Notes: generated from the sequence alone by a model not told the origin. A stretch of DNA of 64,000 bases from Candidatus Shapirobacteria bacterium (GCA_020059745.1 JAGVBK010000003.1:68492-132491), one strand, 5' to 3'. Positions 6,361 through 28,192 are shown, numbered from the stretch's first letter. Program-made: numbers and translations.

Positions 6361-7289
6361 CCTTAATAATTTTAAACTGGAACGGGTTTGAAATGACCCG
6401 CAATTGCCTCTCCTCAATTGTGAAAGCCGACGTAAAAGATTTTAATCTTGAGATATATGTTGTTGATAATGGTTCAACAGACGGAAGTACTGAGCGCCTA
6501 AGAGAGTTAATAGACAATTCGCTGATTACCGGTAACCGGTCACCGATCACTCTCAGGCTGATCGAAAACAAAGAAAATCTGGGGTTTGCGGAAGGAAACA
6601 ATGTGGGAATAAGAAAGGCTTTAGAAAATAAAGCGGATTATGTTTGTTTGCTTAATAATGATACCAGGGTTGATAAAAACTTTCTTGTTTTTTTAATAAA
6701 AGCGGCAGAAGAAGAAATAAATGCAGGAGTTATCGGGGGGAAAATTTATTTTGAAAAAGGATTCGAGTATTTTAAGGATAAATACAGTGAGAAAGAAAGG
6801 GGCAATGTTATCTGGTACGCCGGAGGGAAAATAGACTGGCTTAATGTTTACGCTTCCCATCGGGGAGTAGACGAAGTTGATAAAGGCCAGTATGAAAAAA
6901 GGGAAGAAACAGAATATGTTAATGGTTGCCTGATGCTGGTAAAAAAGGAAGTTTTTGAAAGAATCGGCCTTTTTAACCCCCAATACTATCTTTATTATGA
7001 AGAAAATGATTTCTGCCAACGAGCCAAAAAAGCAGGCTACAAGCTTTTTTATGAGCCGAAGTCAGTGATTTGGCACCTTAATGCCGGCTCTTCCGGCTCA
7101 GGTTCTGATCTTCACGATTATTTTTTGACCAGAAACAGAATGCTTTTTGGGATAAAACATGCTCCTTTCAAATCGAAAGCTGCTTTGCTAAAGGAGAGTC
7201 TTTGGATTTTAAGAAAAGGCAGAAAATGGCAGAAAAAGGCAATTTTGGACTTTTACAAAGGAAATTTAGGAAAAGGATCTTGGAAATGA
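6348..7289 (+). CDS. Family 2 glycosyltransferase of the rhamnosyltransferase-like subgroup.
   Basis: Contains ALIILNWNG...VVDNGSTDGS...RLIENKENLGFAEGNN, the typical GT2 signature. The DxD region reads LLNNDT. A heptamer-repeat patch lies inside the CDS at 6524-6550. Confidence 0.8.
   Translation: MRKVALIILNWNGFEMTRNCLSSIVKADVKDFNLEIYVVDNGSTDGSTERLRELIDNSLITGNRSPITLRLIENKENLGFAEGNNVGIRKALENKADYVCLLNNDTRVDKNFLVFLIKAAEEEINAGVIGGKIYFEKGFEYFKDKYSEKERGNVIWYAGGKIDWLNVYASHRGVDEVDKGQYEKREETEYVNGCLMLVKKEVFERIGLFNPQYYLYYEENDFCQRAKKAGYKLFYEPKSVIWHLNAGSSGSGSDLHDYFLTRNRMLFGIKHAPFKSKAALLKESLWILRKGRKWQKKAILDFYKGNLGKGSWK
6524..6550. repeat. Degenerate heptanucleotide tandem repeat of the GGTNACC family, inside a GT2 CDS.
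   Basis: GATTACC GGTAACC GGTCACC GATCAC at exact 7-nt phase. It encodes LITGNRSPI. Confidence 0.6.
6541..6578. repeat. 38-nt tract nearly identical (37 of 38) to 20526-20563 in a diverged GT2 paralog.
   Basis: Here it reads caccgatcactctcaggctgatCgaaaacaaagaaaat; the other copy differs at one position (...gatAgaaaac...). Flanking codons are much more diverged. Confidence 0.7.
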
Positions 7290-8062
7290 AAAAAGAATTG
7301 AAACTGTCCGTGATCATTCTTACTAAAAATGAAGAAGACATTATTGGCGACTGTTTGGAGTCGGTTAAATGGGCTCCGGAAGTTGTTGTGGTTGACCATT
7401 ATTCTACCGACCAAACATTAAAAATCGTAAAAGAACACGGAATTAATAAGATTTATGTCGCAGACGAAAAATCCAGTTTTTCGGAAAGAAGGGATCTTGG
7501 TGCTCAAAAAGCGCAAGGAGAGTGGCTTTTATATGTCGATGCCGACGAGAGAGTAACACCGGTTTTAAGAAAAGAAGTTGAGGAGGTTATCAAAGATAGC
7601 AACTTTTCAGCTTATGCAATTCCAAGAAGAAATGTCAGGTTAACTAAAGAACTTCATTTTGGCGGTTGGTGGCCGGATTATGTTCTCAGGCTGATGAGAA
7701 AAGACAAGTTAAAAACCTGGAAAGGAGACTTGCACGAGCAGCCGGAAATTGAAGGAGAAACAGGCTATCTTAAGGAAGCCCTTGTTCATTTTAGCCACCG
7801 GGGCAGCTTGGAACATAAGTTTAAAAACACGATTAATTGGTCAAAGATTGAAGCCCAAAAAATGTTTGATGCCGGGCATCCACCAATGAATGTCAAAAGA
7901 TTTGTTTCTGCCATGTTTAGAGAGTTTTACAAAAGAGCAGTTAAGCTGCAGGCTTTTAGGGACGGAACAGAAGGGATAATTGAAGCTTTTTATCAGGTTT
8001 TCAGCGTCTTTATAAGTTATGCCAGGCTTTGGGAGATGCAAATTGAGTCAAAAAAGAAATGA
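7286..8062 (+). CDS. Family 2 glycosyltransferase.
   Basis: Contains LSVIILTKNEEDII...VVVDHYSTDQT...DADE and a WWPDY motif. I prefer the ATG at 7286, which overlaps the upstream TGA as ATGA, over the lysine-rich upstream extension from 7202. Confidence 0.75.
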   Translation: MKKELKLSVIILTKNEEDIIGDCLESVKWAPEVVVVDHYSTDQTLKIVKEHGINKIYVADEKSSFSERRDLGAQKAQGEWLLYVDADERVTPVLRKEVEEVIKDSNFSAYAIPRRNVRLTKELHFGGWWPDYVLRLMRKDKLKTWKGDLHEQPEIEGETGYLKEALVHFSHRGSLEHKFKNTINWSKIEAQKMFDAGHPPMNVKRFVSAMFREFYKRAVKLQAFRDGTEGIIEAFYQVFSVFISYARLWEMQIESKKK

Positions 8063-9150
8063 AAAAAACAAGCACGACAAAAACACTTGGCATATTTGAT
8101 CCTTATTTGGATACTCTTGGTGGGGGAGAAAGGTACTGCCTTTCCCTTGCCGAAGCAATGCTTAAAAAAGGTTGGAAAGTGGATCTTTTTTGGCAGGATG
8201 AAACTATTAAAGAAAAGCTAATAGAGAGATTTGGTTTGGAAATTAAGCCTCTTGGTTTTGTTAGCTATTCACCGGGAAAATCTCTTTTTGAGAGAAGAAA
8301 ATTTGAAAAAAAATATGATGTTTTGTTCTATGTTTCTGACGGCAGTATTCCTTTCATGTTTGGAAAGAATAATTTTCTTCATTTTCAGGTCCCTTTTACC
8401 AACCTCTCAAAAAAACCTGTTCTAAATTCTATAAAATTAAAAAACATTAGAAAAATTATTTGCAATTCCGACTTTACTAAAGGCATTATTGATTCGGGCC
8501 TTAAAGCCGATTCTCTTGTCGTTTACCCTCCGGTTGACATTACCCCGCTTAAGCCGTTAAAAAAGGAAAACACTATTCTTTCTGTCGGCCGTTTTTCTCA
8601 GCTTTTGCAAGGGAAAAGGCAAGATGTTTTGATTGATGCTTTTAAGGTATTGGTTGATAGACATTCCATAAATAATTGGCAATTGGTTTTGGCAGGGGGA
8701 AGCGAGATAGGAGGAAAGGAATATGTAGAAACGCTTAAAAATTTGGCCAAAGGATATAACATTTTGATTATTGAAAACCCTCCTTTTGCCGAGCTTCTTA
8801 AGCTATACGGAAAAGCTAAAATTTTTTGGACTGCTTCAGGGTTTGAGGTTGATGAAGAAAAAAATCCGGAAAAAGTTGAACACTTTGGCATGACAACCGT
8901 TGAGGCAATGGCAGCCGGGTGCGTGCCTGTAGTTATGGCAAAAGGAGGGCAAAAAGAAATTGTAAAAGAGGGTGAAAACGGTTTTTTGTGGTTAGCAAAA
9001 GAAGAGCTTGTTAAAAAAACTCTTGAGATTGCCGGTAACGGCCAATTAATGAAGAAACTGTCAGAAAATGCTATCCTAAGGAGTGAAGCCTTTTCAAAAG
9101 AAAAATTTTCCGAAAAAATTTATCAAATTTTCGAGAATGAAAGAAAGTAA
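8059..9150 (+). CDS. Family 4 glycosyltransferase with a GT-B fold.
   Basis: The C-terminal half has the EX7E-like region FGMTTVEAMAAGCVPVV that is typical of GT4. Confidence 0.75.
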   Translation: MKKTSTTKTLGIFDPYLDTLGGGERYCLSLAEAMLKKGWKVDLFWQDETIKEKLIERFGLEIKPLGFVSYSPGKSLFERRKFEKKYDVLFYVSDGSIPFMFGKNNFLHFQVPFTNLSKKPVLNSIKLKNIRKIICNSDFTKGIIDSGLKADSLVVYPPVDITPLKPLKKENTILSVGRFSQLLQGKRQDVLIDAFKVLVDRHSINNWQLVLAGGSEIGGKEYVETLKNLAKGYNILIIENPPFAELLKLYGKAKIFWTASGFEVDEEKNPEKVEHFGMTTVEAMAAGCVPVVMAKGGQKEIVKEGENGFLWLAKEELVKKTLEIAGNGQLMKKLSENAILRSEAFSKEKFSEKIYQIFENERK

Positions 9151-10408
9151 AAAAGAGAAAGGTTTTAGCTTTTGGAAAGTTTTGATAATCGGGGTTCTTC
9201 TCAGGTTGGTTTTAATGCCGGTTACGCTTCATCCCGATATTTTGGGCCATTCTTTTAGCGCCTACTTTTTTGCTTATGAAGGAAAGATAAATCTTTATGA
9301 CACTCTGGCTGAGTTGCCGCAAACGCATCCTTTGGTAAAAAATTTTGGGGTCAGCGATATTTTTATTTATCCTCCTTTAACCTACTTCACCTTAGGGCTT
9401 TTTAGAGTAATAGTTAAGCCGTTTTCAGACCCAAACTTTGTTCCATTCCTCATGGAAAACCTGAGCCAGATTCATTACCGAAATGATCTCTTCTTAAACC
9501 TTTTCTTATTTAAATTTCCATATCTCTTTTTTGATGTCGGCCTGGCGTTTTTACTGGCCGGGCTTTTTGATGATCTGAAAAAGAAGAATCTTGCTTTCGC
9601 TCTTTGGATATTTAACCCGGTTACAATCTATGCCACTTTCATGATTGGCCAGCTCGACCTTTTGCCAGCCTTTTTTAGCGTTTTGGGTATTTACCTTTTT
9701 AAAAAAGAGAAATTTTCTTGGGCAGCATTTTCTGTCGGAGTTGCCGCTTCTTTTAAAATGTACCCTCTTTTTTTGCTTTTTCCTTTGGCCTTTTTAAGCA
9801 ACATTAAATTTTCGGAAAAGATAAAAAACCTTGTTTTTGGCGTAGCGCCTTTTATCTTTTTTATTGCTCCTTTTGTAAACTCACCGGCATTTCGGGCTCA
9901 GGTATTTTCTCCCAAAAGCCAGAAAATGCTTTTTATGGGCTGGCCTTTATCAGGGGCGGAAGTAATTTATCCGTTTATTTTAGGGTTAAGCATTCTTTGT
10001 TTTTCCGCTTATTACTCAAAAAAGAAAAGCGATTTGCCTGTTTACTTTGCTTCAGCGCTGCTTTTGACCTTTAGCGTTACCCATTTTCACCCCCAATGGT
10101 TTTTATGGGTTACTCCGTTTTTAATTTGGGAGCTGGTAGAGAATAATTTTAAAAATTGGTTTTTAACTTTTACCATTTTTATCTCCTGGCTGGTTCTAAC
10201 CTTAATGTTTGAGCCCTCGCTTTCTTACGGGCTTTTTAACCCGCTTTGGCCGGATTTAGACAAAGCAGCCGGGCTTTCGGACTTGCTTGGCCGATATACA
10301 AATGTTTTCCAGTTTAAAAGCCTTGTCAGAAGCCTTTTTGCCGGAGCCTCGCTATTTTATGTAGTCAAACTTCTTTGGGGCGGGTTAAAAACCAATGCCG
10401 ACAATTAA
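9137..10408 (+). CDS. Polytopic membrane protein, a putative GT-C-type glycosyltransferase.
   Basis: About 424 aa from the ATG at 9137; the ORF track extends it to 9083 through a lysine-rich leader. There are more than 10 TM helices with short loops. It sits between GT4 and YfhO-like genes. Confidence 0.45.
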   Translation: MKESKKEKGFSFWKVLIIGVLLRLVLMPVTLHPDILGHSFSAYFFAYEGKINLYDTLAELPQTHPLVKNFGVSDIFIYPPLTYFTLGLFRVIVKPFSDPNFVPFLMENLSQIHYRNDLFLNLFLFKFPYLFFDVGLAFLLAGLFDDLKKKNLAFALWIFNPVTIYATFMIGQLDLLPAFFSVLGIYLFKKEKFSWAAFSVGVAASFKMYPLFLLFPLAFLSNIKFSEKIKNLVFGVAPFIFFIAPFVNSPAFRAQVFSPKSQKMLFMGWPLSGAEVIYPFILGLSILCFSAYYSKKKSDLPVYFASALLLTFSVTHFHPQWFLWVTPFLIWELVENNFKNWFLTFTIFISWLVLTLMFEPSLSYGLFNPLWPDLDKAAGLSDLLGRYTNVFQFKSLVRSLFAGASLFYVVKLLWGGLKTNADN

Positions 10409-12794
10409 AAAAAATTTAAAATATTTTGCACTTTTATTTCTTTTTTTAGCATGGTTTGTTTTGTTTCACAAGGTATTTTTAAAAGGCTTGCTGCCAATCC
10501 CGGCAGACATTATTACCGGCGTTTACTTCCCCTGGCTTGACTATAAATGGGGATTTTTGACCGGAGTGCCGGTTAAGAATCCCTTAATTTCCGACATTCC
10601 TTCTTTGCTTTACCCTTGGCGGCAGCTTGTTATTGACCAGTATGCTTCTGGCAGTTGGCCGCTTTGGAATCCATACTACTTTGGCGGCATGCCTCTTCTT
10701 GCCAATTTTCAGTCGGCAGCGTTTTCTTATGTTAATGCCTTTTTTTTGTTTTTGCCCAAAGCCTTTGCCTGGTCTTTTGGGGTAATGCTTTCGCCCCTTA
10801 TAACCATGCTTGCTTTTTATATATTTTTAAGGAACAAGAAACTTGGAGTAATGCCTTCGCTTTTGGGAAGCATTACTTTTTCGCTTTCAGGTTTTCAGAC
10901 AGCCTGGCTTGAATATAATGTCCACGGCCACACAGCCCTTTTTTTGCCTTTGCTTCTTTTATTTATTGATAAAATTCTGGGAGAAAACAAAAGAAGATAC
11001 CTTTTTGGATTGCCATTGCTCGTTGCTTTCCAAATTTTTGCAGGTTATATCCCCGTCGTTATTTATTCTTATCTTATTTGCGGCTTTTATGTTTTGTTTT
11101 TTTATCTTATACCGGAATTAAAAAAATCTTTTGAATATAAAAAATTCCTTCTTTTTTTTGGCTTCTTTCTCTGGGGGATTTTTTTAGCTTCAGTTCAATT
11201 GTTTCCGGGTTTTGAGTTGACTCAGAATTCAATAAGAAAAATTGATCCGACCGTTACCGCCAGTAATGCTTCCTATCTTCCTTTTGTCAATTTAGCGACC
11301 GCCCTGGCTCCGGATTTTTTTGGCAACCCTGCCACCGGGAATTATTTTGGCACGGCTTTTTATGACAACTTCTACTTTTTTATGGGCACCGGCACTTTAA
11401 TATTGCTGTTTTTTTCTTTATTTTTTTTAAAAAAAGAAAAAAACATTTTCTTTTGGTGGGCAGTTTTAGGTTTTTCCTTTATTTTAATTTTTGAAAACCC
11501 GCTGGGAAAAATTTTGGAAAAGATACTTTTTTTGTCAGGGGGAGTTTCGGCGAGGGCTCTTTTTATGACCACTTTCTCCCTGGCTGTTCTTTTTGCTTAC
11601 GGTTTTGAAAAAATGCTAAGCGAAACCAGGGCAAGGAAAAAACTTCTTTTTTCAATCTTTATTTTGCTTGCTTTATTTTTGTTAACTTATTTAATTTCCA
11701 ACCAAATTAAAAACCCGGTTTTTAAGAGTGTCGCTCAAAGAAACCTTGTTATTCCCTTTGCCGCATTTGCCTTCTCCGGTTTTTGCCTGTTTTTATTGAG
11801 TTTTAAAAAGTTAAAGAAATATAAATACTTTTTTGCTTTTGTTTTTTGTTTGATTACCCTGGCGCAGCTCATTTATTCGACCCAAAAGTACCTTCCTTTT
11901 TCAAAAAAAGAGCTTTTGTTCCCAAAGACTCCGGTTTTGGATTTTCTTGTCGGAAAGCAAAAATTGGAAAAATCTCCCTTTAGGGTGGAACTAGGCGAGG
12001 TGATTCCCCAAAATTTTCTTATGCCTTATAAACTTCAAACAATATCAGGCTATGATGCCTTGATGCCAAAAAGAACAGGAGAATTTCTTTCCCTGCTTAA
12101 AACAGGGGAAGTTAAAGAAAATATTTCCAGGGTTTTTCTTATCGACGGCTTTGACTCAAATTTATACCCGATTCTTAACATTAATTATGTTTTGGCAAAA
12201 AAGACTGATGAAAAAGGGTTTTTTTCTCCTTCCGGCAGCCCGCCGGCAGTTTTTGCAAACCCCCGCTTTAAGGCGGTTTTTGAAGATAAAACCGTAGTTG
12301 TTTATGAAGACCAAAAGGCATTACCGCGTGCTTTTTGGGTTTATGACTTTGCAGTTGCAGAAGACGATTTAGGATTGATTAATCTTTTAAAAACTTCCGA
12401 CCTTTCTAAAAAAGTGATTTTAGAAGAAAAACCGGAAATCGAGCCGATTTTAGAAAATATCGTTCCGGGTTCAGTTGTATGGAGTGAGTATTTACCCAAT
12501 AAAGTCTCTTTTGTTGCCGAATCCGAAAAGCCGGGAATAATTTTTTTATCGGATAATTTTTATCCTGGCTGGGTAGCTTTTATTGACGGGCAAAAAGCTA
12601 AAATTTTACGGGCCAATTATACTTTTAGGGCTCTCAGTGTTCCTGAAGGTAAGCACCGCATTGACTTTGAATATAAACCTAAAAGCTTTTACTTGGGGCT
12701 AGGGGTTTCATTGGCCTCTTTTGTGATTTATGGCCTTTTTCTTTTAAGGGAAGTAATAAAATTAAAAAAATCTCAAGTAAAAAATGATTACTAA
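10395..12794 (+). CDS. YfhO-family-like GT-C membrane glycosyltransferase.
   Basis: 799 aa. The N-terminal loop reads PADIITGVYFPWLDYKWG...PVKNPLISD...WNPYYFGGMPLLANFQS. A large soluble C-terminal domain follows. It is a tandem paralog of the 12784 gene. Confidence 0.5.
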   Translation: MPTIKKNLKYFALLFLFLAWFVLFHKVFLKGLLPIPADIITGVYFPWLDYKWGFLTGVPVKNPLISDIPSLLYPWRQLVIDQYASGSWPLWNPYYFGGMPLLANFQSAAFSYVNAFFLFLPKAFAWSFGVMLSPLITMLAFYIFLRNKKLGVMPSLLGSITFSLSGFQTAWLEYNVHGHTALFLPLLLLFIDKILGENKRRYLFGLPLLVAFQIFAGYIPVVIYSYLICGFYVLFFYLIPELKKSFEYKKFLLFFGFFLWGIFLASVQLFPGFELTQNSIRKIDPTVTASNASYLPFVNLATALAPDFFGNPATGNYFGTAFYDNFYFFMGTGTLILLFFSLFFLKKEKNIFFWWAVLGFSFILIFENPLGKILEKILFLSGGVSARALFMTTFSLAVLFAYGFEKMLSETRARKKLLFSIFILLALFLLTYLISNQIKNPVFKSVAQRNLVIPFAAFAFSGFCLFLLSFKKLKKYKYFFAFVFCLITLAQLIYSTQKYLPFSKKELLFPKTPVLDFLVGKQKLEKSPFRVELGEVIPQNFLMPYKLQTISGYDALMPKRTGEFLSLLKTGEVKENISRVFLIDGFDSNLYPILNINYVLAKKTDEKGFFSPSGSPPAVFANPRFKAVFEDKTVVVYEDQKALPRAFWVYDFAVAEDDLGLINLLKTSDLSKKVILEEKPEIEPILENIVPGSVVWSEYLPNKVSFVAESEKPGIIFLSDNFYPGWVAFIDGQKAKILRANYTFRALSVPEGKHRIDFEYKPKSFYLGLGVSLASFVIYGLFLLREVIKLKKSQVKNDY

Positions 12795-15207
12795 TTTGAA
12801 AAACATTTTGTTAAAAACTTGGCCCTTTTTATTAATTATATTTTTGGTAGGAGTCTTTTTTTGGAAATTCTTCCTGAAAGGATTAATCCCTCTTCCGGCA
12901 GATTTGGTTATTGGCGCATATTACCCCTGGCTTGACTACAAATGGGGCTATGAGGTCGGGGTTCCAGTGAAAAATCCTCTTATTGCCGATTCTGTTTCTC
13001 AATTTTATCCTTTTAAGATATATGCCATGGAACAAATTAAGGAAGGATTTCTACCGCTTTGGAACTCCTCGTTGTTCGGAGGTTGTCCCTTGTTTTCAAA
13101 TGTGCTGATTGGAATTCTAAATCCTACAAATTTATTATTTGTTTTTCTACCAAAATTGACTGCTTGGGGGTTACAGACTTCCCTTCAGCCCTTGCTGGCG
13201 GCCTTCTTTACTTATTTATTCTTAAGGTCGTTTAATCTTGGTAAATTCTCAAGCATTGCCGGAGCGATTATCTATGCTTTTTGCGGCTTTAACATTATGT
13301 GGATGGAACTTAATATCCACGGCTTTACTGCCGCTTTTCTTCCTCTCATTTTTTATTCAATAAATAAGTTCTATCATTCTAAAAATATTTTATTTTTAAT
13401 ACTAACCAGCTTGGCAATTTGTTTGCAGATATTTTCCGGTTATCCTCAAATAATTATTTACTCATTTTTAACTTTAATATTCTATGTTTTCTGGGTTTTT
13501 GGGGTCCCCAGGAAGGAAAATTTGCTTGTTTTTTCCTTTGTGGCGCTTGGTATAATTTTGGCAAGTGTCCAGATTGTTCCTACGATAGAGCTTTTTTTAA
13601 ATTCCCAACGGCGGCTTGAGAGTTTACCTTTTGACCAGGTTTATCTGCCTTGGTCGTATATCATCTCTTTTTTCGCCCCGGATTACTACGGGAATCCTGT
13701 CACTGGCAATTTCTGGGGCAAGACCGATTATACGGCTATTTGCGGATATTGCGGGATTGTTTCTGTTGTTTTGGCGGGAACAGCTTTTTCCTGGATAAAA
13801 AAGAAAAAAATTGTTTCCTTTTTTATCGTATTACTTTTTTTTACACTGGCGCTGGCTTTTCCTACTCCATTAATGAAACTTTTCTATAAAGGCAATTTTT
13901 TTGGGCTAGGGGCTTCGGGAGCCTCAAGGATCCTTTTCCTTTCCTGTTTTTCCATTGCCTCTCTTTCTGCTTTTGGTTTCGAAATATTGTTAAACCATAA
14001 GTTTGAAAAAAAATATTTAAGGGCGTTATATTTGCCACTAATAATCTTGGGTGGGTTTGGTGTTGGCACCTTGCTTTCAATAGCAATTGTTAAATATGCT
14101 TCCAGGGAACTAGCTCAAGAAGCACTTATTTATCTGGATAAATTTTGCTATGGAAACTTAAAGGTTGGCATGAGGAATTTAGTGCTGCCCTCGCTGGTAT
14201 TATCCTCAATGATATTGGCACTTGCCGCTTTGAATTTTAAAAATAGAATTACTAAAAAAGCTTCATTAATCTTGATCTTTTTAGTTTTAATATTAGAACT
14301 TTTCCGTTTTGGGTGGAAATTTCTTCCGTTTACTAAGCCTGATTTGGTTTATCCGGAAACTCCGGTTATAACATTTTTAAAAGAAAAACAAGGAATTTTT
14401 AGAGTTGAGGGGGGAGATGCTATTCCGATGAACATGCTGATGCCGTATGGAATCGACACTTTCTCTGCTTATGACCCGATGTATCCCCTAAGAACAGCGG
14501 AGATGATTTCCCTTGTTGACGGAGGATCAATCCTTAGACCAAAAGACCGTTATGCAAAGATAAACAACTATCATTCAAGGCTTCTTGACCTGAGCAATAT
14601 TTGTTATCTGCTGTCAGTAAAAAAAGACGATAGGGACAGAGTAAGTATTGAGGGTAGGCCTGGTTATCAGTTCCGGTTGGATAAGTTTTCGGTAATTTTC
14701 AGCGACAAGTCAGTCGATGTTTTAAAAAATAAAGATTGTTTTCCGAGGGCCTTTTTGGTTAGAGACTATATTATTTCCAGTTCAAAAGAAGAAATTGCCC
14801 AGTTTTTACAGAGCAAAGATTTTGACTTGAAAAAGACCATTATACTTGAAAAAAATCCTGGTGTTATTTCTTTAAAAACAGAGACATCCAAAGAAGATAA
14901 GCTGGTTTGGAGAGTCCAAAAACCGGGTTTTAATGAGATAGAGGTTGACTTGAAGGAGCCTGCCTTTATTTTTCTTTCTGAGAACTATTATCCGGGGTGG
15001 AAAGCCTTTGTTGATGACCAGAAAACTGAAGTTTTTCGAGCTGATTATGCGTTTCAATCAGTATATGTTCCTTCGGGAAAACATTTAGTCAAATTTGTTT
15101 ACAGCCCTGTTTCCTTTAAAATAGGAATTATTTGTTCAGGGCTGGCAGCAACGGTTTTATTTGTTTTATTATTAAGCAAAAGGAAAAAAACTATTACTGG
15201 TTACTAA
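12784..15207 (+). CDS. YfhO-family-like GT-C membrane glycosyltransferase; paralog of the 10395 gene.
   Basis: 807 aa. The N-terminal motifs are near-identical to the upstream gene (PADLVIGAYYPWLDYKWG...PVKNPLIAD). It has the same architecture. Confidence 0.5.
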   Translation: MITNLKNILLKTWPFLLIIFLVGVFFWKFFLKGLIPLPADLVIGAYYPWLDYKWGYEVGVPVKNPLIADSVSQFYPFKIYAMEQIKEGFLPLWNSSLFGGCPLFSNVLIGILNPTNLLFVFLPKLTAWGLQTSLQPLLAAFFTYLFLRSFNLGKFSSIAGAIIYAFCGFNIMWMELNIHGFTAAFLPLIFYSINKFYHSKNILFLILTSLAICLQIFSGYPQIIIYSFLTLIFYVFWVFGVPRKENLLVFSFVALGIILASVQIVPTIELFLNSQRRLESLPFDQVYLPWSYIISFFAPDYYGNPVTGNFWGKTDYTAICGYCGIVSVVLAGTAFSWIKKKKIVSFFIVLLFFTLALAFPTPLMKLFYKGNFFGLGASGASRILFLSCFSIASLSAFGFEILLNHKFEKKYLRALYLPLIILGGFGVGTLLSIAIVKYASRELAQEALIYLDKFCYGNLKVGMRNLVLPSLVLSSMILALAALNFKNRITKKASLILIFLVLILELFRFGWKFLPFTKPDLVYPETPVITFLKEKQGIFRVEGGDAIPMNMLMPYGIDTFSAYDPMYPLRTAEMISLVDGGSILRPKDRYAKINNYHSRLLDLSNICYLLSVKKDDRDRVSIEGRPGYQFRLDKFSVIFSDKSVDVLKNKDCFPRAFLVRDYIISSSKEEIAQFLQSKDFDLKKTIILEKNPGVISLKTETSKEDKLVWRVQKPGFNEIEVDLKEPAFIFLSENYYPGWKAFVDDQKTEVFRADYAFQSVYVPSGKHLVKFVYSPVSFKIGIICSGLAATVLFVLLLSKRKKTITGY

Positions 15208-15215
15208 TTTAAAAG

Positions 15216-15857
15216 ATGATAGAAGAAGCAGCCAGGCTGCATCACAATGTTCCCCCGAACTATTACGAGGAAAGTATCAAAAAAAATATTTTCCAGCGTT
15301 TTTGGCATTTTCAACGGTTTAAGAATATTAGCAAAATAAGCACCCCTGTTAAGGGCGCTATTTTGGATATTGGATGTGCAGACGGAACTTTCTCGGAAAT
15401 TATTTTCAAAAAAACTAAGGCCGAAAAAATTATCGGCATTGATGTTTTAAAAAAGTCGGTTGAGTATGCGGCAAAAAGATTTAAGAACAAAGAAAAAATG
15501 AGTTTTATGGTTGCCGACGCTGAAAACCTGCCTTTTAAAGACAATCAATTTGGAGCAGTTTTTTGTCTTGAAGCACTGGAGCATATTCTTGATCCCAAGA
15601 AAGCTATTTTGGAAATGAAGAGGGTTCTAAGGCCGGGAGGTTATTTAATTATTCTTGTTCCCACCGACAGCCTTCTTTTTTTAGTTTTATGGCAGATAGT
15701 TTTAATGACCTGGGGAAAGCACTGGCGGGAAACTCATGTTAACAGTTTTAAAGAGAGAAGAAGCTTGCAGAATTTTTTGGAAGAAAACGGCTTGAGCGTA
15801 GTTGAAGATAAAAAGTTTCTTTGGGGAATGCTTGAGGCAGTTAAGGCGGTGAAATAA
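15216..15857 (+). CDS. Class I SAM-dependent methyltransferase.
   Basis: Motif I reads ILDIGCADGTF. Motifs II/III are FCLEALEHI...LRPGGYLII. Confidence 0.75.
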   Translation: MIEEAARLHHNVPPNYYEESIKKNIFQRFWHFQRFKNISKISTPVKGAILDIGCADGTFSEIIFKKTKAEKIIGIDVLKKSVEYAAKRFKNKEKMSFMVADAENLPFKDNQFGAVFCLEALEHILDPKKAILEMKRVLRPGGYLIILVPTDSLLFLVLWQIVLMTWGKHWRETHVNSFKERRSLQNFLEENGLSVVEDKKFLWGMLEAVKAVK

Positions 15858-15906
15858 TAAAAATTGCCTCTTTTCAAAACTTAATTTTGGTTTTATACTT
15901 TACTTT

Positions 15907-16635
15907 ATGGAAAAAGAAAAAAAGTCAACCCGAAAACCCGCAGCCAAAAAACCTGTTCGAAAAACCAAGTCATTACCCAAAACCCAGGAAAACATTGTTG
16001 AAGCTGTTTCCGTAGAAACACTTACTGTCAGCGAAACTCCTGTTGTAAAAAATTCCGGTCCGAAAATAAACACCTTTTCTCTTATCTTTGTTCTGATGGT
16101 GGTTATTTTAGGTCTTTTGGGATACTTGTTTAGAGACAGGATTTTTGCAGCTACAGTTAATGGCAAGCCGATTTTCAGATATGAACTTAACGAGAGGATG
16201 GTTAAAACTTTTGGCAAGGAAGTTCTTGAAAATTTGATTGTCGAGAGGTTAGTCGCCGAAGAAGCAGCCAAAAACAGCATTGCCGTTACTTCAGACGAAG
16301 TTGATGAAGAAGTAAAAAAAGTATCAGAAAGCCTAGGGCCAGACACCAAGCTTGAGGACATTTTAAAGTTTCAAGGCATGACCCTTGAGGACTTTAAAGA
16401 GCAAATGAGATTAAAAATCCAGGTGAACAAACTTCTTGCCAATGAAGTGGTTATTTCCGATGAAGAAATTGCGGATTTTGTTGAAAACAACAGCCAGTCC
16501 TTAACCGCCGCAGACGATGAAGGCAAGAAAGAAGAGGCGAGAAACATTCTTAAAGAACAGAAGATTAACCAAGCTTTTGGAACTTGGATTGATGAGCTGA
16601 TGAAAAACAGCAAAATCACCAGGTATCTGAACTAA
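15907..16635 (+). CDS. Membrane-anchored SurA-N-domain-like chaperone protein with no PPIase domain.
   Basis: It has a lysine-rich N-terminus and a single TM helix. A helical domain follows that resembles the N-terminal chaperone domain of SurA/PrsA. Confidence 0.45.
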   Translation: MEKEKKSTRKPAAKKPVRKTKSLPKTQENIVEAVSVETLTVSETPVVKNSGPKINTFSLIFVLMVVILGLLGYLFRDRIFAATVNGKPIFRYELNERMVKTFGKEVLENLIVERLVAEEAAKNSIAVTSDEVDEEVKKVSESLGPDTKLEDILKFQGMTLEDFKEQMRLKIQVNKLLANEVVISDEEIADFVENNSQSLTAADDEGKKEEARNILKEQKINQAFGTWIDELMKNSKITRYLN

Positions 16636-16672
16636 TCTCTCTTTCGTCTTTTCTTTATGCTAAAATTTCCTC

Positions 16673-17527
16673 ATGGATGTATCTATCCTTGTTACTTGCT
16701 GGAACGGGGAAAAACTTCTCTCTCATAACTTTTCAAAAGTAGTTGAGGCGGCGGAAAACAAAGATAATAAGGTTAAAGAGATTTTGGTTGTTGATGACGG
16801 CTCTTCAGACAATTCTGTTTCTTTCCTAAAAAAGAATTTTCCCCAAGTTAAGGTACTGGAGAATAAAAGGAACTATGGTTATGGCTTTTCTTGCAACCGG
16901 GGAATGGAAGAAGCAAAAGCTGATTTGGTGGCAATTTTAAATCTTGATGTGATTCCGGATAAAGATTTTTTAGTTTCCTGTTTGCCGCACTTTGAAGACG
17001 AAAAGGTTTTTTCTGTTTCTTTTAATGAGGGCAGTTTTGGTCCCGGCAGGCTGGCTTGGAACAAAGGGTTTATTGAAATTGTTGAAACAAAACCGGAAAA
17101 AACAACCTCTTTTGCTTCCTGGCCGAGCGGGGGAAGCTCAGTTTTCAGAAAAAAGCTTTGGCGGGAAATAGGGGGAATGGATGAAATTTTTCTTCCTTTT
17201 TATTTTGAAGATATTGATTTGGGAATACGGGCCGAAAAAAAGGGCTATAAGTGCTTATGGGAGCCCAAGGCAAAGGTAAACCACAAACACGAGGCAACAA
17301 TCAATCCGGAAAATTTTGCTCTTCATAAGCACAAAAAAGACATTTCTTTAATAAAAGAAAGAAACTTTCTGCTTTTAAATTGGAAACATTTAGACAGTCC
17401 TTCAGATTTTTTTAATCATTTAGTTTATCTTTTTAAAAGGGCTTTTTTCGCGCCGGGGTATTTTAAAGTCATTTTTTCTGCAATCTTAAGAAAAATATCC
17501 TTCAGTTTTACCCATGAGCAACTTTAA
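16673..17527 (+). CDS. Family 2 glycosyltransferase.
   Basis: Contains SILVTCWNGEKLL...VVDDGSSDNS...YGYGFSCNRG and a DxD-like LNLD. Confidence 0.75.
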   Translation: MDVSILVTCWNGEKLLSHNFSKVVEAAENKDNKVKEILVVDDGSSDNSVSFLKKNFPQVKVLENKRNYGYGFSCNRGMEEAKADLVAILNLDVIPDKDFLVSCLPHFEDEKVFSVSFNEGSFGPGRLAWNKGFIEIVETKPEKTTSFASWPSGGSSVFRKKLWREIGGMDEIFLPFYFEDIDLGIRAEKKGYKCLWEPKAKVNHKHEATINPENFALHKHKKDISLIKERNFLLLNWKHLDSPSDFFNHLVYLFKRAFFAPGYFKVIFSAILRKISFSFTHEQL

Positions 17528-18773
17528 GATTAAGCTTTCTTTGTTTGGTGCTTTTTTGTTGAGAATCGCTTTTTTTCCTTGGGGGCGTCACAGTGACTGC
17601 GACAACTTTTTTTATTGGTCAAAATACCTTTGGGATAAAAAAGATTTTTTGGGGTTTTTAGGGAAGTCGGTTCCTAATGCTATGCCGGCAACCTACCCTC
17701 CGATTTACTATTACCTTATTTACCTTTGGCGCGGTTTTTACGAACTAATCGGCGAAATTTTATGGCGGCTTAATGTCAAGCTGTCATTTTTCCCTTCAAA
17801 CTTCATTTTCATTTATCAAAGCTATCAAGGAGGGGTAGCTTTTAATAAACTGCCTGCAATTTTTGCTGATTTTGGCTGTGCATTTCTGATTTTTAAAACC
17901 GCGGTTTTGGCAGGATGCAAGAGAGAAGCGGCGGCGGTTTCCTCTCTTCTTTTCCTCTTGCTGCCGCCTTTTTGGTATAACAGCGCCCACTGGGGGCAGA
18001 TAGACAGCATTTACGCCTTTTTTATCCTGCTGGCTTTTTATTTAACTTTCAAGAGTAAATTTTTGTTGGCAACTTTTTCATTAGGTTTGTCTGCCCTGGT
18101 AAAACCAACAGGTCTTTTTGTTTTACCGGCTTTTTTAATATATTTTTTAGGAAAAAGAAAAATTATGGATGGAATCTTTGGCGCTGCTTTTTTTGCTATT
18201 TTGGCTTATATTTTATATTTTCCCATCCAGCCTTTAAATACTCTTGCGTGGGCTTTCAGTTTTTATTTTGGCAGCTTTAAAGGCGAAGTAGATTTTCTTG
18301 CCTCAAATGCCTTTAATTTTTGGTCTTTTCTTTTTGGATTTGATCAAAGGCCGGCCGGATCGCTTTTCTTGGGAATCCCTTTATCCTTGTGGGGTTTTGC
18401 CGTTTTTACTTTTTTTGGCGGAGTGATTGCTTTTTATCAGTGGAAAAGAAATAACCGAAAAAGTTTTCTTTTTTCAGCCTTTCTTTTTAGTTTTGCCTCT
18501 TTTCTTTTTTTACCAAGGATGCATGAGCGTTATTTCTATACAGCGGCGGCAGTTTTGGCAATTCTCTCTGGGTTTAACAAAAAAATGCTTTATTTGTTTG
18601 TTGCTCTTTCTTTAATTCACTTTATTAACCTTTACCATTTTTGGTGGTCACCAAGAATTCCTTTGCTAATTTCGCTTTTTTCCAATCTGGCAGTTCTTCG
18701 GGTTCTTATCTTTCTTAAGATGGCAATTTTTGCTAAACTATTGCTAGCCCACGCGAAAAATGAAACTGCTTGA
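17514..18773 (+). CDS. GT-C-fold polytopic membrane protein, DUF2029 or PIG-V/Gpi18 mannosyltransferase-like.
   Basis: 419 aa with about 11 TM helices and a C-terminal MHERYFY motif. It is a paralog of the 22953 gene, which has MHERYLY. Confidence 0.45.
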   Translation: MSNFKIKLSLFGAFLLRIAFFPWGRHSDCDNFFYWSKYLWDKKDFLGFLGKSVPNAMPATYPPIYYYLIYLWRGFYELIGEILWRLNVKLSFFPSNFIFIYQSYQGGVAFNKLPAIFADFGCAFLIFKTAVLAGCKREAAAVSSLLFLLLPPFWYNSAHWGQIDSIYAFFILLAFYLTFKSKFLLATFSLGLSALVKPTGLFVLPAFLIYFLGKRKIMDGIFGAAFFAILAYILYFPIQPLNTLAWAFSFYFGSFKGEVDFLASNAFNFWSFLFGFDQRPAGSLFLGIPLSLWGFAVFTFFGGVIAFYQWKRNNRKSFLFSAFLFSFASFLFLPRMHERYFYTAAAVLAILSGFNKKMLYLFVALSLIHFINLYHFWWSPRIPLLISLFSNLAVLRVLIFLKMAIFAKLLLAHAKNETA

Positions 18774-20274
18774 AATTGCATACAAATATCTTTGGGTTGT
18801 TATCCTTGTTTCTTTCTTTTTTTTGTATTCTTACAAATTAACCGAAGTTCCTCCGGGAATTAACTTTGACGAAGCTTCCATCGGGTATAATGCCGCTTTA
18901 ATTTCAGATGATCTTCATGACGAAAACGGCCGTTTATTGCCGGTTTTTATTCTTACCCTTGACGGAAAAGATTGGAAACAGCCGAGCAATGTTTATTTTG
19001 CCGCTTTAATTTTTAAAATTTTGGGAAAGTCATATTTTAACCTGCGGCTTATCAGCGTTATTTATGCTGTTGTTTCCGGCTTTCTTTTTTATAAGCTTTT
19101 AAGACTTTTTGTTTCCCAGTTTTTAAGTCTAATTGGTTTGGTTTTGTATTTAACCGCTCCTTCGATGATGATTCAAAGCCATCTGGTATTGGAAAATATG
19201 GCCCTGCTTCCTTTTTTTATGGTCTGGCTTTATTTTCTTCTTTCCTATTCGCTTAAGCCAAAACCCTATAAAGCGCTTATTTCGGGGATTTTTTTGGGGA
19301 TTTCTTTTTATTCTTATAAGGGCATGCGGGCAATGGTGCCGGTTTATTTAGTTTTATCAGTTTTTTATTTTCTTTACCTTGATTTTTACCCCCTGCCGGA
19401 TTTAAAAAAAATTAAGGCTCTTTTAATTAAAGCCAAACCTTTGTTTTATTTCTTAATCGGAATTGGTCCTTTTCTTTTGCCTGTAAATTGGTTGAATTCC
19501 CGCTACGCCGGCGCTGTTTATGACCCGCGGGTTTTTATTCCAACTTCTCTTTATGAGTCAGCGCTTATCTATTTTGGCAATTTTGATTTTTCCTTTCTTT
19601 TTGCCAAAGGCGACAGCATGCTGACCCATTCCACCGGCAGGCACGGAATTTTTTTGGGTCCGACCTTTTTTCTTTTTTTTCTTGGGCTTTTTCAGCTGGC
19701 TAAAGAAAAAAAACACCAATACTACTTTGTTTTCCTTACTCTTATCTTAACCCCGGTTCTTTTGATGAGAGTTGGTTCAGTATACCGGGCCAGCCGCTTA
19801 ATGATGTATATTCCTCTGGCGACTTTTATTTTTACTTTGGGAGTAAAAAAAATATTGGAATACAAAACCGCAGTTTTAAAATATGCGCTTTTGTCGGCGG
19901 TGATACTTTCTGTTGGCTTTTTTTATTCTGACTTTTTAAAGCATTATTTTGGGCCTTACCCTAAAAGAATCAGCCAGGACTTTTCTCCAAATTTTAACGA
20001 GGCCTTTAAAAGCTTGGCAGAGCTTTCAAGGGAAACCGGCAAAACTCCTTATGTTGAGTACGACGACTACAACCGCCACTTTACCGACATGCAATTTTTT
20101 AGGGAAGTATTTTTTCCCAAAGAAGACCTTAAAATGTGGCCCAGGGATTTTGATCCTTTTCCTGAAAACGGCTTGGTGCTAACCTCAATCGGCGGAAGCG
20201 GAGAAATAATTAATTACAAAGAAATCCCGGCGCTTGAGTCTGGCCAGCGGACTTTTTTTATTGTCGGCAAATAA
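18760..20274 (+). CDS. ArnT/PMT-family GT-C glycosyltransferase (GT83/GT39-like). This is the divergent member preceding the tandem array.
   Basis: The first extracytoplasmic loop carries the DE motif, NFDEASIGYNA...DENG. There are about 11 TM helices and a soluble C-terminal domain. Confidence 0.7.
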   Translation: MKLLEIAYKYLWVVILVSFFFLYSYKLTEVPPGINFDEASIGYNAALISDDLHDENGRLLPVFILTLDGKDWKQPSNVYFAALIFKILGKSYFNLRLISVIYAVVSGFLFYKLLRLFVSQFLSLIGLVLYLTAPSMMIQSHLVLENMALLPFFMVWLYFLLSYSLKPKPYKALISGIFLGISFYSYKGMRAMVPVYLVLSVFYFLYLDFYPLPDLKKIKALLIKAKPLFYFLIGIGPFLLPVNWLNSRYAGAVYDPRVFIPTSLYESALIYFGNFDFSFLFAKGDSMLTHSTGRHGIFLGPTFFLFFLGLFQLAKEKKHQYYFVFLTLILTPVLLMRVGSVYRASRLMMYIPLATFIFTLGVKKILEYKTAVLKYALLSAVILSVGFFYSDFLKHYFGPYPKRISQDFSPNFNEAFKSLAELSRETGKTPYVEYDDYNRHFTDMQFFREVFFPKEDLKMWPRDFDPFPENGLVLTSIGGSGEIINYKEIPALESGQRTFFIVGK

Positions 20275-21181
20275 CATGAATCTTTCAATTATCATTGTCA
20301 GCTACAACACCAAGGAACTTTTGAGAAAGTGCCTTGAGTCGGTGATCAGGGATCAGTTATCGGGAATCAGTTATCAGGGATCGGTTGTCGGTAAAAACAA
20401 AAAACCGGTAACCGATAACCAATTACCGGTAACCGAAATCATTGTCGTTGACAATGCTTCAAAAGACGGAAGCGTAGAGTACTTAAGGGAGCTAGTAGAT
20501 AATTCACCGACCACCGACCACCGATCACCGATCACTCTCAGGCTGATAGAAAACAAAGAAAATTTTGGTTTTGCCAAAGCGGCAAATCAAGGTATAAGGA
20601 TAGCAAAAGGAGAAAATATTTTGCTTTTAAATTCAGACACAAAGCTTACTGAAAATTCGCTTAAGAGCCTTTTAGAGTTTGCGGAGAAAGTGCAGCCTGC
20701 TGTGATTGGAGCCCAAATGCTAAATCCCGACGGTTCAGTGCAGGGGTCTTGCTTTTTATTGCCAACCGTTAAAAGAGCGATTTTAGAATATTGGTTGGGG
20801 AAAAAAGATTATTTTTCAAAATACTATCCAAAGGGAGATAGGCCGGTTGAGGTTGAGGCGGTTTCCGGAGGAGCGATGCTAGTCTCAAAAGAGATTGTTA
20901 ATGAAGTGGGAATGCTGGACGAGCGGTATTTTATGTATTTTGAAGACCTTGATTTTTGCCGCCGAGCAAGAAAAGCAGGATATAAAATTTATTATCTTCC
21001 TTCCTCAAAGATCATTCACGAGCACGGAGCCAGCGGTAAAAAACTGGCAGAACCGAAAGATCAATGGCGAAGACTTGTTCCTTCAAGCAAGATTTATCAC
21101 GGCAGCTTAAACCATTTTTTAATCACTTTTATTATTTTAAGCGGGCAGAAAATTAGAAAGCTTTTTACAGGCAAAAAATGA
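20234..21181 (+). CDS. Family 2 glycosyltransferase carrying an in-frame heptamer-repeat insertion.
   Basis: Contains LSIIIVSYNTKEL...VVDNASKDGS...RLIENKENFGFAKAAN...LLNSDT. Relative to the 6348 paralog, an insertion of about 30 aa (DQLSGISYQGSVVGKNKKPVTDNQLPVTE) is encoded by a palindromic heptamer array. Confidence 0.8.
   Translation: MSLASGLFLLSANNMNLSIIIVSYNTKELLRKCLESVIRDQLSGISYQGSVVGKNKKPVTDNQLPVTEIIVVDNASKDGSVEYLRELVDNSPTTDHRSPITLRLIENKENFGFAKAANQGIRIAKGENILLLNSDTKLTENSLKSLLEFAEKVQPAVIGAQMLNPDGSVQGSCFLLPTVKRAILEYWLGKKDYFSKYYPKGDRPVEVEAVSGGAMLVSKEIVNEVGMLDERYFMYFEDLDFCRRARKAGYKIYYLPSSKIIHEHGASGKKLAEPKDQWRRLVPSSKIYHGSLNHFLITFIILSGQKIRKLFTGKK
20344..20434. repeat. Array of about 13 degenerate heptamers forming an imperfect palindrome, inside a GT2 CDS.
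   Basis: The units are GATCAGG GATCAGT TATCGGG AATCAGT TATCAGG GATCGGT TGTCGGT AAAAACA AAAAACC GGTAACC GATAACC AATTACC GGTAACC. Left-arm units contain GTTATCGG, and right-arm units contain its complement CCGATAAC. Confidence 0.65.
20505..20535. repeat. Heptamer tandem repeat CACCGA(C/T) with 4.4 units, inside a GT2 CDS.
   Basis: CACCGAC CACCGAC CACCGAT CACCGAT CAC. It is contiguous with the 38-nt tract shared with the 6348 gene. Confidence 0.65.
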
Positions 21182-28169: not shown

Positions 28170-28192
28170 TTTTATAATGGTATAAGAAAAAA

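Follow-up and report, generated by a model that had tools for sequence, protein, structure and literature searches.

In-frame heptanucleotide repeat arrays in enzyme genes of a Candidatus Shapirobacteria bacterium and arrays around its IVP gene

Patches of tandem 7-nt units lying in glycosyltransferase genes of this Candidatus Shapirobacteria bacterium are best explained, at a probability of roughly 0.6, as STRR-type heptamer repeats that are translated and carried as tolerated passengers rather than used as ON/OFF switches. We scanned the window, i.e., the whole 64,000-nt stretch of DNA analyzed, with a sliding self-match scan and TRF. Period-7 tandem arrays were found at 8 loci (at least 14/21 self-matches), against approximately 0.9 in codon-block shuffles, and at a stricter threshold of at least 16/21 they were found at 4 loci, against 0 in the shuffles. 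Periods 4 to 6 and 8 to 12 stayed at the shuffle level in the 14/21 scan of the window, and among periods 10 to 24, only 14 and 21 scored. Tandem repetition is specific to the 7-nt unit, and other short periods are not enriched in the window. TRF reported 20344-20436 and 20505-20535, both with period 7; the array at 6524-6551 was missed by TRF and caught by the self-match scan.

Nine arrays of two unit families, A (approximately GATCACC) and B (approximately TGAACCA), were located in the 64 kb (Table 1). The three patches of a preliminary description, which was made from the sequence alone, were all recovered at their positions, and five more arrays that it had missed were found within the window, those from position 34749 onward in Table 1. 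Six of the nine are in-frame within coding sequences, and the arrays occupy permissive loop positions in at least four enzyme genes, plus both flanks of an IVP gene. In addition to the GT2 genes, a radical-SAM gene and the IVP flanks carry arrays. The inverted pairs are the site-1 hairpin (20341-20437) and the two arrays bracketing the IVP gene, and the other four arrays are one-armed. The copies span 28 to 97 nt and have nothing in common beyond the unit family and an A-rich loop of 12 nt; the longest perfect period-7 run is 10 to 20 nt, i.e., fewer than three units. Rfam and tRNA scans of the window gave no match and no rRNA. An assembly artifact was ruled out, since several samples had independently assembled identical sequences.

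Table 1. Heptamer arrays and their host genes in the 64,000-nt window.
Feature	Position	Strand	Details
GT2 glycosyltransferase gene, 313 aa, host of array 1	6348-7289	+	PF00535, E 1.5e-16; protein identical to RJR23667.1 (Candidatus Microgenomates bacterium)
One-armed family-A array GATTACC GGTAACC GGTCACC GATCACT	6524-6551	+	Encodes LITGNRSPIT; "site 2" of the GT2 fold
GT2 gene, 301 aa from ATG 20276, host of arrays 2 and 3	20276-21181	+	PF00535, E 4.6e-23; P0001 100% identical
Site-1 hairpin left arm, seven reverse-complement-type units (GGTGATC AGGGATC AGTTATC ...)	20341-20392	+	Encodes part of RDQLSGISYQGSVVG
A-rich 12-nt hairpin loop AAAAACAAAAAA, encodes KNKK	20393-20404	+	
Site-1 hairpin right arm CC GGTAACC GATAACC AATTACC GGTAACC GAA	20405-20437	+	Encodes PVTDNQLPVTE
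One-armed family-A array at site 2, CACCGAC x2, CACCGAT x2, CAC	20505-20535	+	Encodes PTTDHRSPIT; TRF 4.4 copies, 95% matches
Family-B array TGAAYNN x8, 5' of IVP gene	34749-34804	+	Holds PMT_2 stop codon (34756-34758) and IVP start codon (34797)
IVP gene, 124 aa	34797-35171	+	PF05635, E 3e-30; TIGR02436, E 6.8e-27
Inverted family-B array NNNTTCA x5, 3' of IVP gene	35156-35190	+	Holds IVP stop codon (35169-35171) and next GT2 start codon (35175)
Weaker family-A array GATAATC GATCACT GATGGCC GATAACC	35496-35523	+	In-frame in third GT2 gene, 35175-36008 (PF00535); GATC at 35503
Family-A array ACTGGTC ACTGATC ACTGGTC ACTGGTT ACTG	55972-56003	+	In-frame in B12/radical-SAM gene, 55661-57145; encodes LVTDHWSLVTV
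Family-B array, stop-free orientation, GATTCGA AGTTCAT GGTTCAT GGTTCAA AGTTCAA	56174-56208	+	In B12/radical-SAM gene, 55661-57145; encodes DSKFMVHGSKFK

The earlier view that the patches lie in-frame in GT2 genes (6348-7289 and 20276-21181) and are nucleic-acid-level features inserted as in-frame loops was borne out. In the second of these genes, the arrays fall at codons 23 to 87 of 301, near the 5' end, a placement in which gain or loss of one unit, 7 being indivisible by 3, would shift the frame. The arrays avoid stop codons, either through the strand they occupy or through substitutions; in the site-1 left arm, TGA occurs in the first unit only and is out of frame, and this reshaping of the arm to avoid stops points to long-term translation. 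An AF2 model of the protein has a GT-A fold with an overall pLDDT of 89.3, dropping to approximately 55 for residues 31 to 50 and below 50 for residues 80 to 82, and in this model, the arrays are predicted to encode low-confidence, disordered loops just upstream of beta-strands. A protein-level repeat was ruled out, as the two arms are complementary as DNA and unrelated as peptides. Overall identity between the two GT2 paralogues is 50%, but around the site-2 array, 105 of 132 positions match.

The long hairpin proposed in the preliminary description stood for site 1, where 20339-20438 folds at -32.7 kcal/mol (z -4.68) and none of 200 shuffles was equally stable. It did not extend to the one-armed arrays, which gave no significant fold at 20480-20560 (z +1.4) or 6500-6575 (z -1.4). 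Of four two-armed arrays, three gave a significant fold (z -4.7, -4.1, and -3.5), and the one in L005 did not (z -1.5). Loops nearly identical to the A-rich one at site 1 recur in the orthologue hairpins of L006/L009 and L005, and the 20505-20535 array shows 76% complementarity with the left arm of the site-1 hairpin, which lies 143 nt upstream of it.

The inserts had been described as absent from paralogs, and some GT2 orthologues indeed have none (e.g., P0014, P0026, P0032, P0062, and P0071), but in many others, which come from other Microgenomates and are 55 to 71% identical, heptamer arrays are found in variable form at the codon positions of these two sites, as confirmed in the DNA of L002, L003, and L005. 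At the site of array 1, orthologues P0124 and P0125 (86 to 87% identical) have the same right arm plus a further 24 nt, a degenerate left arm, and an A-rich loop. Radical-SAM orthologues encode PITNHQSLITI, LITNHQSPVTV, and PVTSHQSPITV at the 55972-56003 site, and one of the radical-SAM orthologues has 11 units versus 4.5 here, a 42-nt difference; the family-B array of the same gene is common to orthologues P0136 and P0144. All length differences that could be placed, of 24 and 42 nt, are divisible by 3 and map to the array sites, as read from consensus assemblies and intact-protein databases, neither of which would reveal OFF variants. Among cluster members at least 90% identical (90 to 100%), arrays differ by substitutions only, with copy number unchanged, and substitutions are elevated inside the arrays. 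Sample L001 is identical over the stretches it covers, namely the IVP-flanking arrays and the 35496-35523 array, and so is sample L098 over the site-1 left arm, the loop, and the first two right-arm units; one short contig found through the neighboring genes ends inside the site-1 right arm and covers that array only in part.

These patterns are consistent with a course of events in which arrays within genes would be transcribed and translated with a net length that is a multiple of three. The arrays would persist and change by unit gain and loss, probably through slipped-strand mispairing, perhaps with a contribution from arm-to-arm or paralogue-to-paralogue conversion, while selection would remove every frame-breaking outcome. 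The preliminary description's fallback, a footprint of an insertion process, comes close to the evidence. On the other hand, a stable hairpin in coding sequence and a 7-nt periodicity kept at the same sites across orthologues of 55 to 85% identity may mean that the structure or the repeat is selected, and hence functional rather than neutral.

An unexpected outcome was the association of arrays with the IVP gene, which ties together two unexplained features. The gene has PMT_2 and GT2 genes as its neighbors and is enclosed by the inverted array pair, whose arms are 76% complementary over 37 nt. A syntenic IVP copy in L003 is preceded by an array of the same type. Synteny at this locus extends to a genome with only 57% identity in GT2, so there has been no recent movement of the locus. 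Tandem 7- to 8-nt arrays were found at 66 of 80 metagenomic IVP loci and at all eight plasmid IVP genes inspected, which came from cultured cyanobacteria and Riemerella; array-flanked IVP genes are carried by Nostoc, Trichormus, Aulosira, and Calothrix plasmids, and on one cyanobacterial plasmid, the IVP gene is inserted between cas10 and cmr3. A contig search with the IVP protein matched five Bacteroidota loci. Where arrays lie on both sides, their orientation is usually inverted, and complementary flanking arrays were present at 36 of 41 IVP loci (median z -7), the unit sequence being arbitrary between loci. The stem energies showed no sense-strand bias (21 versus 19, P = 0.79), and RNA-specific G-U pairing was not evident. 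IVP resembles Avd, but a diversity-generating retroelement was rejected, as NF033474 scored 27 bits against a cutoff of 80 and no RT was found among the ORFs scanned. No transposase, RT, or nuclease adjoins the IVP gene in the window.

Several known systems resemble these arrays in part. Mazel et al. are said to have described STRR heptanucleotides in heterocystous cyanobacteria in 1990, and an STRR within the gene for RNase P RNA, reportedly found by Vioque in 1997, is an exception to their intergenic placing. STRRs are 7-bp, hairpin-forming repeats with several families per genome, dispersed copies, and no known function (PMC2670836), all of which are shared by the arrays here; however, the host here is a CPR bacterium (Microgenomates), the unit sequences differ, and the arrays are in-frame in coding sequences, whereas STRRs lie mainly between genes. 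A coding location is atypical for the STRR or heptameric class. The GGGAATC/GGGGAYT repeats of Xanthomonas and Nostoc likewise form arrays of approximately four units, with 70 to 75 convergent (inverted) pairs per genome at conserved positions and with lengths variable between species, and phase variation was judged unlikely for those of Xanthomonas (Rehm et al. 2015, PMC4692102); the present arrays, by contrast, lie within genes and lack G-richness. Across prokaryotes, no tandem repeat is commoner between genes than the heptamer, for which no function is known and whose role has been described as clueless (PMC6344855). A search of the literature for heptamers with CPR or heptamers with IVP returned nothing general, the sole precedent being the 23S rRNA IVS of Coxiella, where two to three heptamer repeats (GACAGAT) of strain-variable number precede the ORF, the first of them being the site of RNase III cleavage (PMC4990558). 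Such IVS, as in Leptospira and Coxiella, are matched here by 34749-35190 only, an IVP/S23p ORF between complementary termini, but this element lies between two glycan genes instead of rRNA helix 9, 25, or 45, and if the ORF-less arrays in protein-coding sequence were cut out and the ends not rejoined, the message would be lost. Rickettsia palindromic elements, reportedly described by Ogata et al. in 2000, are 100- to 150-bp elements with a conserved consensus that form extra surface segments of conserved proteins. They are likewise in-frame, translated hairpin repeats, and the present inserts are similarly absent from some orthologues and form low-pLDDT loops in a confident fold; here, however, only the 7-nt unit family and the short A-rich loop are common, and lengths vary continuously. 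The neuO tracts of Escherichia coli K1 are perfect repeats. They repeat a 7-nt unit toward the 5' end of the gene for a glycan-modifying enzyme, and the full-length protein is made only when the copy number is a multiple of three (PMC13001214, PMC3046976); unlike our four to seven degenerate units, which showed no variation among close relatives, these are long tracts whose number varies between isolates. The assertion that such a mechanism had yet to be described in organisms of this kind is tempered by the cyanobacterial, Xanthomonas, and neuO precedents (PMC2670836, PMC4692102, PMC13001214).

The preliminary description had favored phase-variation switches, with slippage by one or two units reversibly turning off surface-glycan enzymes as in neuO. 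A unit that is not a multiple of 3, the position near the GT2 5' end, and the glycan-enzyme hosts all suit this idea, and there are precedents in the neuO heptanucleotides and the 7-bp repeats of Haemophilus hmw promoters (PMC13001214, PMC8262952) and in the strain-dependent heptamer number of the Coxiella IVS (PMC4990558). Nevertheless, we consider it highly unlikely: the arrays are short and degenerate, none having three perfect units, whereas known switches use tracts that are long and perfect; nothing differs between the independent samples in the parts that their contigs cover, and proteins of 90 to 100% identity show no copy-number differences, in data that would hide OFF variants and low-frequency variants of ±7 nt; the length differences that do exist are multiples of 3; the left arm was reshaped to avoid stops; and the same repeats are also present in a radical-SAM gene and between genes, on either side of IVP, where the reading frame is irrelevant. 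It is extremely unlikely that SPIT/DHR-type peptides are linkers or glycosylation sites selected at the protein level. They are Ser/Thr/Pro-rich and lie in exposed loops, but the left and right arms are complementary DNA encoding unrelated peptides, units of this kind are found outside genes too, the insert is missing from many orthologues, and substitutions are elevated inside the arrays. What we observed is the opposite of a conserved peptide encoded by non-repetitive DNA. Barely credible is the suggestion that GGTNACC or GATC is the target of a restriction-modification or methylation system, for which one could cite four GGTNACC and nine GATC sites inside arrays. The window has 12 GGTNACC sites versus 6.0 ± 2.2 expected, but 4 of the 12 are array units themselves, leaving the motif at expectation elsewhere; GATC is under-represented (98 versus 126.5 ± 11.4); family-B arrays and arrays elsewhere have unrelated units; and neither a cognate DNA methyltransferase nor a restriction gene was present among the ORFs scanned.

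Two further possibilities concern the hairpins. The stems of the GT2 mRNA and the IVP locus might be RNase III substrates or pause sites that set mRNA stability or the translation rate in the glycan operon, a proposal we regard as rather unlikely. The site-1 hairpin is significantly stable here and in orthologues, complementary arrays flank most IVP loci, the Coxiella IVS has its 5' RNase III cut at the first heptamer (PMC4990558), and STRR hairpins have been proposed to act on transcript stability or translational coupling (PMC2670836); against this, three of five coding arrays are one-armed and non-folding, stem energies lack a sense-strand bias, and many orthologues are entirely without the insert. 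It is quite unlikely, in our estimate, that the arrays are non-autonomous relatives of an IVP-centered element, in which IVP or a partner enzyme would recognize or propagate heptamer hairpins, with ORF-less hairpins in genes as its MITE-like satellites. The frequency of arrays at metagenomic and plasmid IVP loci, the insertion between cas10 and cmr3, the presence of family-B units both around IVP and in the radical-SAM gene, and the recurrence of a near-identical A-rich loop in hairpins of different genes speak for it, but the locus has not moved recently, no transposase, RT, or nuclease adjoins IVP in the window, family-A arrays occur in the window without IVP, and IVP has no known enzymatic activity. 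More speculatively, and to us fairly unlikely, heptamer arrays and the four-helix-bundle IVP (a relative of Avd) could form one cross-phylum unit, with IVP binding or helping to propagate hairpins of 7-nt units, IVP-flanked stems (in rRNA, operons, and even a cas operon) being autonomous, and ORF-less hairpins, including those in GT2, being satellites. If true, such a unit would account both for the heptamer excess of prokaryotes, so far unexplained, and for what IVP does.

The analysis sets aside an appealing idea, phase variation of CPR surface glycans, for which it gives no support. Heptamer repeats of this class are present in CPR bacteria, where they can reside as translated loops in enzyme genes that look essential, at positions recurring among orthologues; this matters for CPR protein annotation and structure modeling and offers a natural map of insertion-tolerant loops. 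STRRs have been without an explanation since 1990 and the IVP family without a function since its discovery in rRNA intervening sequences; IVP genes, mostly bracketed by inverted 7- to 8-nt arrays from Microgenomates to Bacteroidota and cyanobacteria, give a testable handle on both puzzles.

We found the three heptanucleotide patches of the preliminary description where it had placed them, along with five further arrays in the window. TRF gave period 7 for both arrays of the 20276 gene, and patch 6524-6551 was detected only by a sliding self-match scan, run at thresholds of ≥14/21 and ≥16/21 matches with codon-block shuffles as the control. At ≥14/21, period 7 was found at 8 loci, compared with 0.9 in the shuffles, and none of the other periods from 4 to 12 showed an excess over shuffles in the window; at ≥16/21, there were 4 period-7 loci, compared with 0. 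Across periods 10 to 24, a signal appeared at the multiples 14 and 21 only. The array signal is specific to period 7, and the units in the window fall into two families, A (~GATCACC, GGTAACC, GACCACC, GGTCACT) and B (~TGAACCA).

Period-7 arrays in the window and their locations (sites 1 and 2 are the two array positions in the GT2 fold; IVP is a PF05635, S23p-type protein)
Feature	Coordinates	Location
Patch, site 2	6524-6551	GT2 gene 6348-7289
Patch, site 1	20341-20437	GT2 gene 20276-21181
Patch, site 2	20505-20535	GT2 gene 20276-21181
Inverted array pair	34749-34804 and 35156-35190	either side of IVP gene 34797-35171
Array, weaker, family A (GATAATC GATCACT GATGGCC GATAACC)	35496-35523	in-frame, third GT2 gene 35175-36008
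Two arrays	55972-56003 and 56174-56208	B12-binding radical-SAM gene

The window has a G+C content of 37% and is nearly all coding, on the + strand. The ORFs scanned encode glycan enzymes (GT2, GT4, PMT_2, YfhO, GT87, AftD-like, radical SAM, epimerase, aminotransferase, and flippase), a small-molecule methyltransferase, and a few unrelated proteins (a SurA-like domain protein and a TPR protein). The window comes from a Candidatus Microgenomates (CPR) bacterium, the organism under which NCBI names a protein with 100% identity to the 20276-21181 GT2. Positions 1-64000, especially 24215-34758, read as a single glycan-assembly locus, with six consecutive paralogous GT-C/PMT_2-like membrane proteins of ~550 aa each, two YfhO-like proteins, others resembling GT87, ALG3, and AftD, three enzymes of the B12/radical-SAM type, and several of the GT2 and GT4 families. 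For a small CPR genome, a glycan locus of this size is an unusually heavy commitment.

The inverted-repeat hairpin proposed for the patch at 20344-20434 was borne out at 20341-20437, with a folding energy of -32.7 kcal/mol (z -4.68) that none of 200 shuffles equaled. Its left arm has seven units and its right arm ~4.5, on either side of a 12-nt loop (AAAAACAAAAAA). One of the three patches is a hairpin; the one-armed (single) arrays, that is, the other two patches and the radical-SAM arrays, showed no significant fold (z +1.4, -1.4, -0.5, and -0.7). The site-1 left arm (20339-20363) has a second potential partner in the one-armed site-2 array at 20507-20531, 143 nt downstream (76% complementarity), so an alternative long-range pairing in the GT2 mRNA or DNA is possible.

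All of the coding arrays are in-frame in their host genes, as had been described for the three patches. Because 7 and 3 are coprime, translation runs through a heptamer array in all three phases; (GATCACC)n is stop-free in every phase, and its complement, (GGTGATC)n, contains TGA. The site-1 left arm retains TGA in its first unit only, out of frame, and its remaining units read AGGGATC, AGTTATC, and GGGAATC. This avoidance of stops accounts for the hairpin being imperfect with a 7-nt rhythm, and it shows that the message has long been translated with this sequence left in. In an AlphaFold2 prediction, the 20276 GT2 had an overall pLDDT of 89.3, falling to ~55 at residues 31 to 50 (site 1) and <50 at residues 80 to 82 (site 2). 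Both sites are loops of the GT-A fold, with a helix before and a β-strand after. The array at 35496-35523 occupies a fold position different from these sites.

We aligned 42 GT2 orthologues (54-70% identity) with both window paralogues. Many of them carry, at the same two sites, variable-length inserts of heptamer-translation peptides, such as SDWLLVV...NQPPVANHQSPTTE, SPITGHRS, and TNHQSPVT, and five (P0014, P0026, P0032, P0062, and P0071) are without insert at both sites. Orthologous DNA from three loci confirmed heptamer arrays at the GT2 sites, with inverted arms and lineage-specific unit variants. Two-armed arrays, which are inverted pairs, folded significantly in 3 of the 4 tested (z -4.7, -4.1, and -3.5), the locus L005 being weaker (z -1.5). 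Orthologues of the 6348 GT2 at 86-87% identity have the right arm as in the window and 24 extra nt, consisting of a degenerate left arm and a AAAAAACAAAAAA loop. The near identity of this A-rich loop across hairpins of different genes points to common descent or copying, not independent origin. Overall identity between the window GT2 paralogues is 37% for protein and 50% for DNA, compared with 105 of 132 positions, ungapped, between 6458-6589 and 20443-20574, a stretch centered on the site-2 array in which rare codons are also identical (ACT CTC AGG CTG). The sequence of this stretch suggests conversion between paralogues or a common inserted segment.

A similar pattern was found at the radical-SAM site, which reads LVTDHWSLVTV in the window and PITNHQSLITI, LITNHQSPVTV, or PVTSHQSPITV in orthologues; one orthologue has 11 units (+42 nt), and others are without a family-A array. 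Some orthologues (P0188, P0246, and P0208; alignment A9, columns ~130-190 and 460-500) carry long inserts whose composition is altogether different, rich in Ala/Gly/Pro/Arg. One of these lies at the heptamer-array site, which therefore appears to be a general insertion hotspot.

At the window IVP gene, the upstream array takes in the preceding gene's stop codon and the IVP start codon, and the downstream array the IVP stop codon and the following gene's start codon. A syntenic IVP gene with an array of the same type ahead of it was found in L003 (20640-20966), from a genome whose GT2 is 57% identical. In a sample of 80 IVP loci drawn from metagenomes, 92 period-7 arrays (43 upstream and 49 downstream) lay near an IVP gene (within ~250-300 nt), compared with 34 elsewhere; the counts were 23 and 16 for period 8, and ≤6 and ≤10 for each of periods 4-6 and 9-12. 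A period-7 or period-8 array was present at 66 of the 80 loci and on both sides at 41. The consensus unit on one side of the gene is the reverse complement of that on the other, the unit sequence being locus-specific, and 36 of the 41 two-sided pairs were far above shuffles in complementarity (median z -7). The arrays lie directly against the ORF (median gap, 9 nt on the upstream and -2 nt on the downstream side) and flanked 32/70 IVP ORFs on both sides versus 13/141 other ORFs. The same picture was seen at 4 of 5 loci in Bacteroidota genomes and on plasmids of cultured Nostoc, Trichormus, Aulosira, Calothrix, Riemerella, and Picosynechococcus. Xanthomonas, too, has an IVP homologue. On plasmid NZ_CP016476.1 of Picosynechococcus sp. 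PCC 7003 (L106, 125930-127587), the IVP gene lies between cas10 and cmr3 of a type III-B CRISPR operon, with inverted short repeats of the GAGGAGATAAG / CTTATCTCCTC type on either side. This position may be why IVP is listed among CRISPR-associated genes (PMC10910872).

Filamentous cyanobacteria carry short tandemly repeated repetitive sequences (STRR), which have a 7-bp unit, form hairpins, and are of unknown function (PMC2670836). Heptamer repeats of Xanthomonas and Nostoc were described by Rehm et al., who counted 70-75 inverted pairs in each Xanthomonas genome. The repeats kept their positions from species to species but differed in length, and they were under-represented in coding regions; the authors considered phase variation unlikely and noted that polymerase slippage has been proposed to explain why heptamers are in excess (PMC4692102). 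According to Mori et al., no intergenic tandem repeat is more common in prokaryotes than the heptamer, and there is "no clear clue" to what it does (PMC6344855). The S23p ORF of the Coxiella IVS follows two or three GACAGAT repeats, the number depending on the strain, and RNase III cuts at the first of them (PMC4990558). Our literature search found no paper generalizing the IVP-heptamer association and none on heptamer arrays in CPR.

The heptamer arrays had been proposed as frame-shifting switches for phase variation, which we consider very improbable. Perfect period-7 runs in the window arrays extend to 10-20 nt at most, fewer than three units. In independently assembled contigs from two other samples, the arrays covered are identical to the window: L001 covers the IVP-flanking arrays and array 35496-35523, and L098 the site-1 left arm, loop, and first two right-arm units. 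L098 3007-3227 (SRR22315508) is identical to window 20200-20420 and ends within the hairpin right arm; repeats probably break short-read assemblies, which would bias public contigs at such loci. Within clusters of ≥90% identity, the arrays differ by substitutions only, which are locally frequent (2 in P0251; 4/11 residues between P0262 and P0178), no member differs in unit number, and the other length differences are start-codon calls. Placeable indels are all at array sites and all multiples of 3 nt. Such stability and frame-preserving indels are what purifying selection on a translated passenger predicts. The comparison used intact-protein databases and consensus assemblies, which would hide OFF variants, and is not a final test; as it stands, the switch proposal is unsupported.

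Nor did the suggestion of restriction or methylation targets find support. GGTNACC occurs 12 times in the window against 6.0 ± 2.2 expected, 4 of the 12 being array units themselves, and GATC is depleted (98 versus 126.5 ± 11.4 expected). The units of family-B arrays and of arrays elsewhere are unrelated to the GGTNACC/GATC type, and no R-M genes were found among the window ORFs scanned. A role of the arrays as regulatory RNA is possible but unlikely, and so is a dependence on IVP.

With their periodicity, structure, coding constraints, and comparative pattern observed directly, we read the patches, at a probability of about 0.6, as STRR-type heptamer arrays that sit in permissive glycan-enzyme loops as translated passengers and preserve the reading frame. 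Related genomes carry such arrays at the same sites, with lengths that change slowly. They would change by slippage and conversion and may be neutral in their host genes. The association between IVP and heptamer arrays is the part most worth following up.
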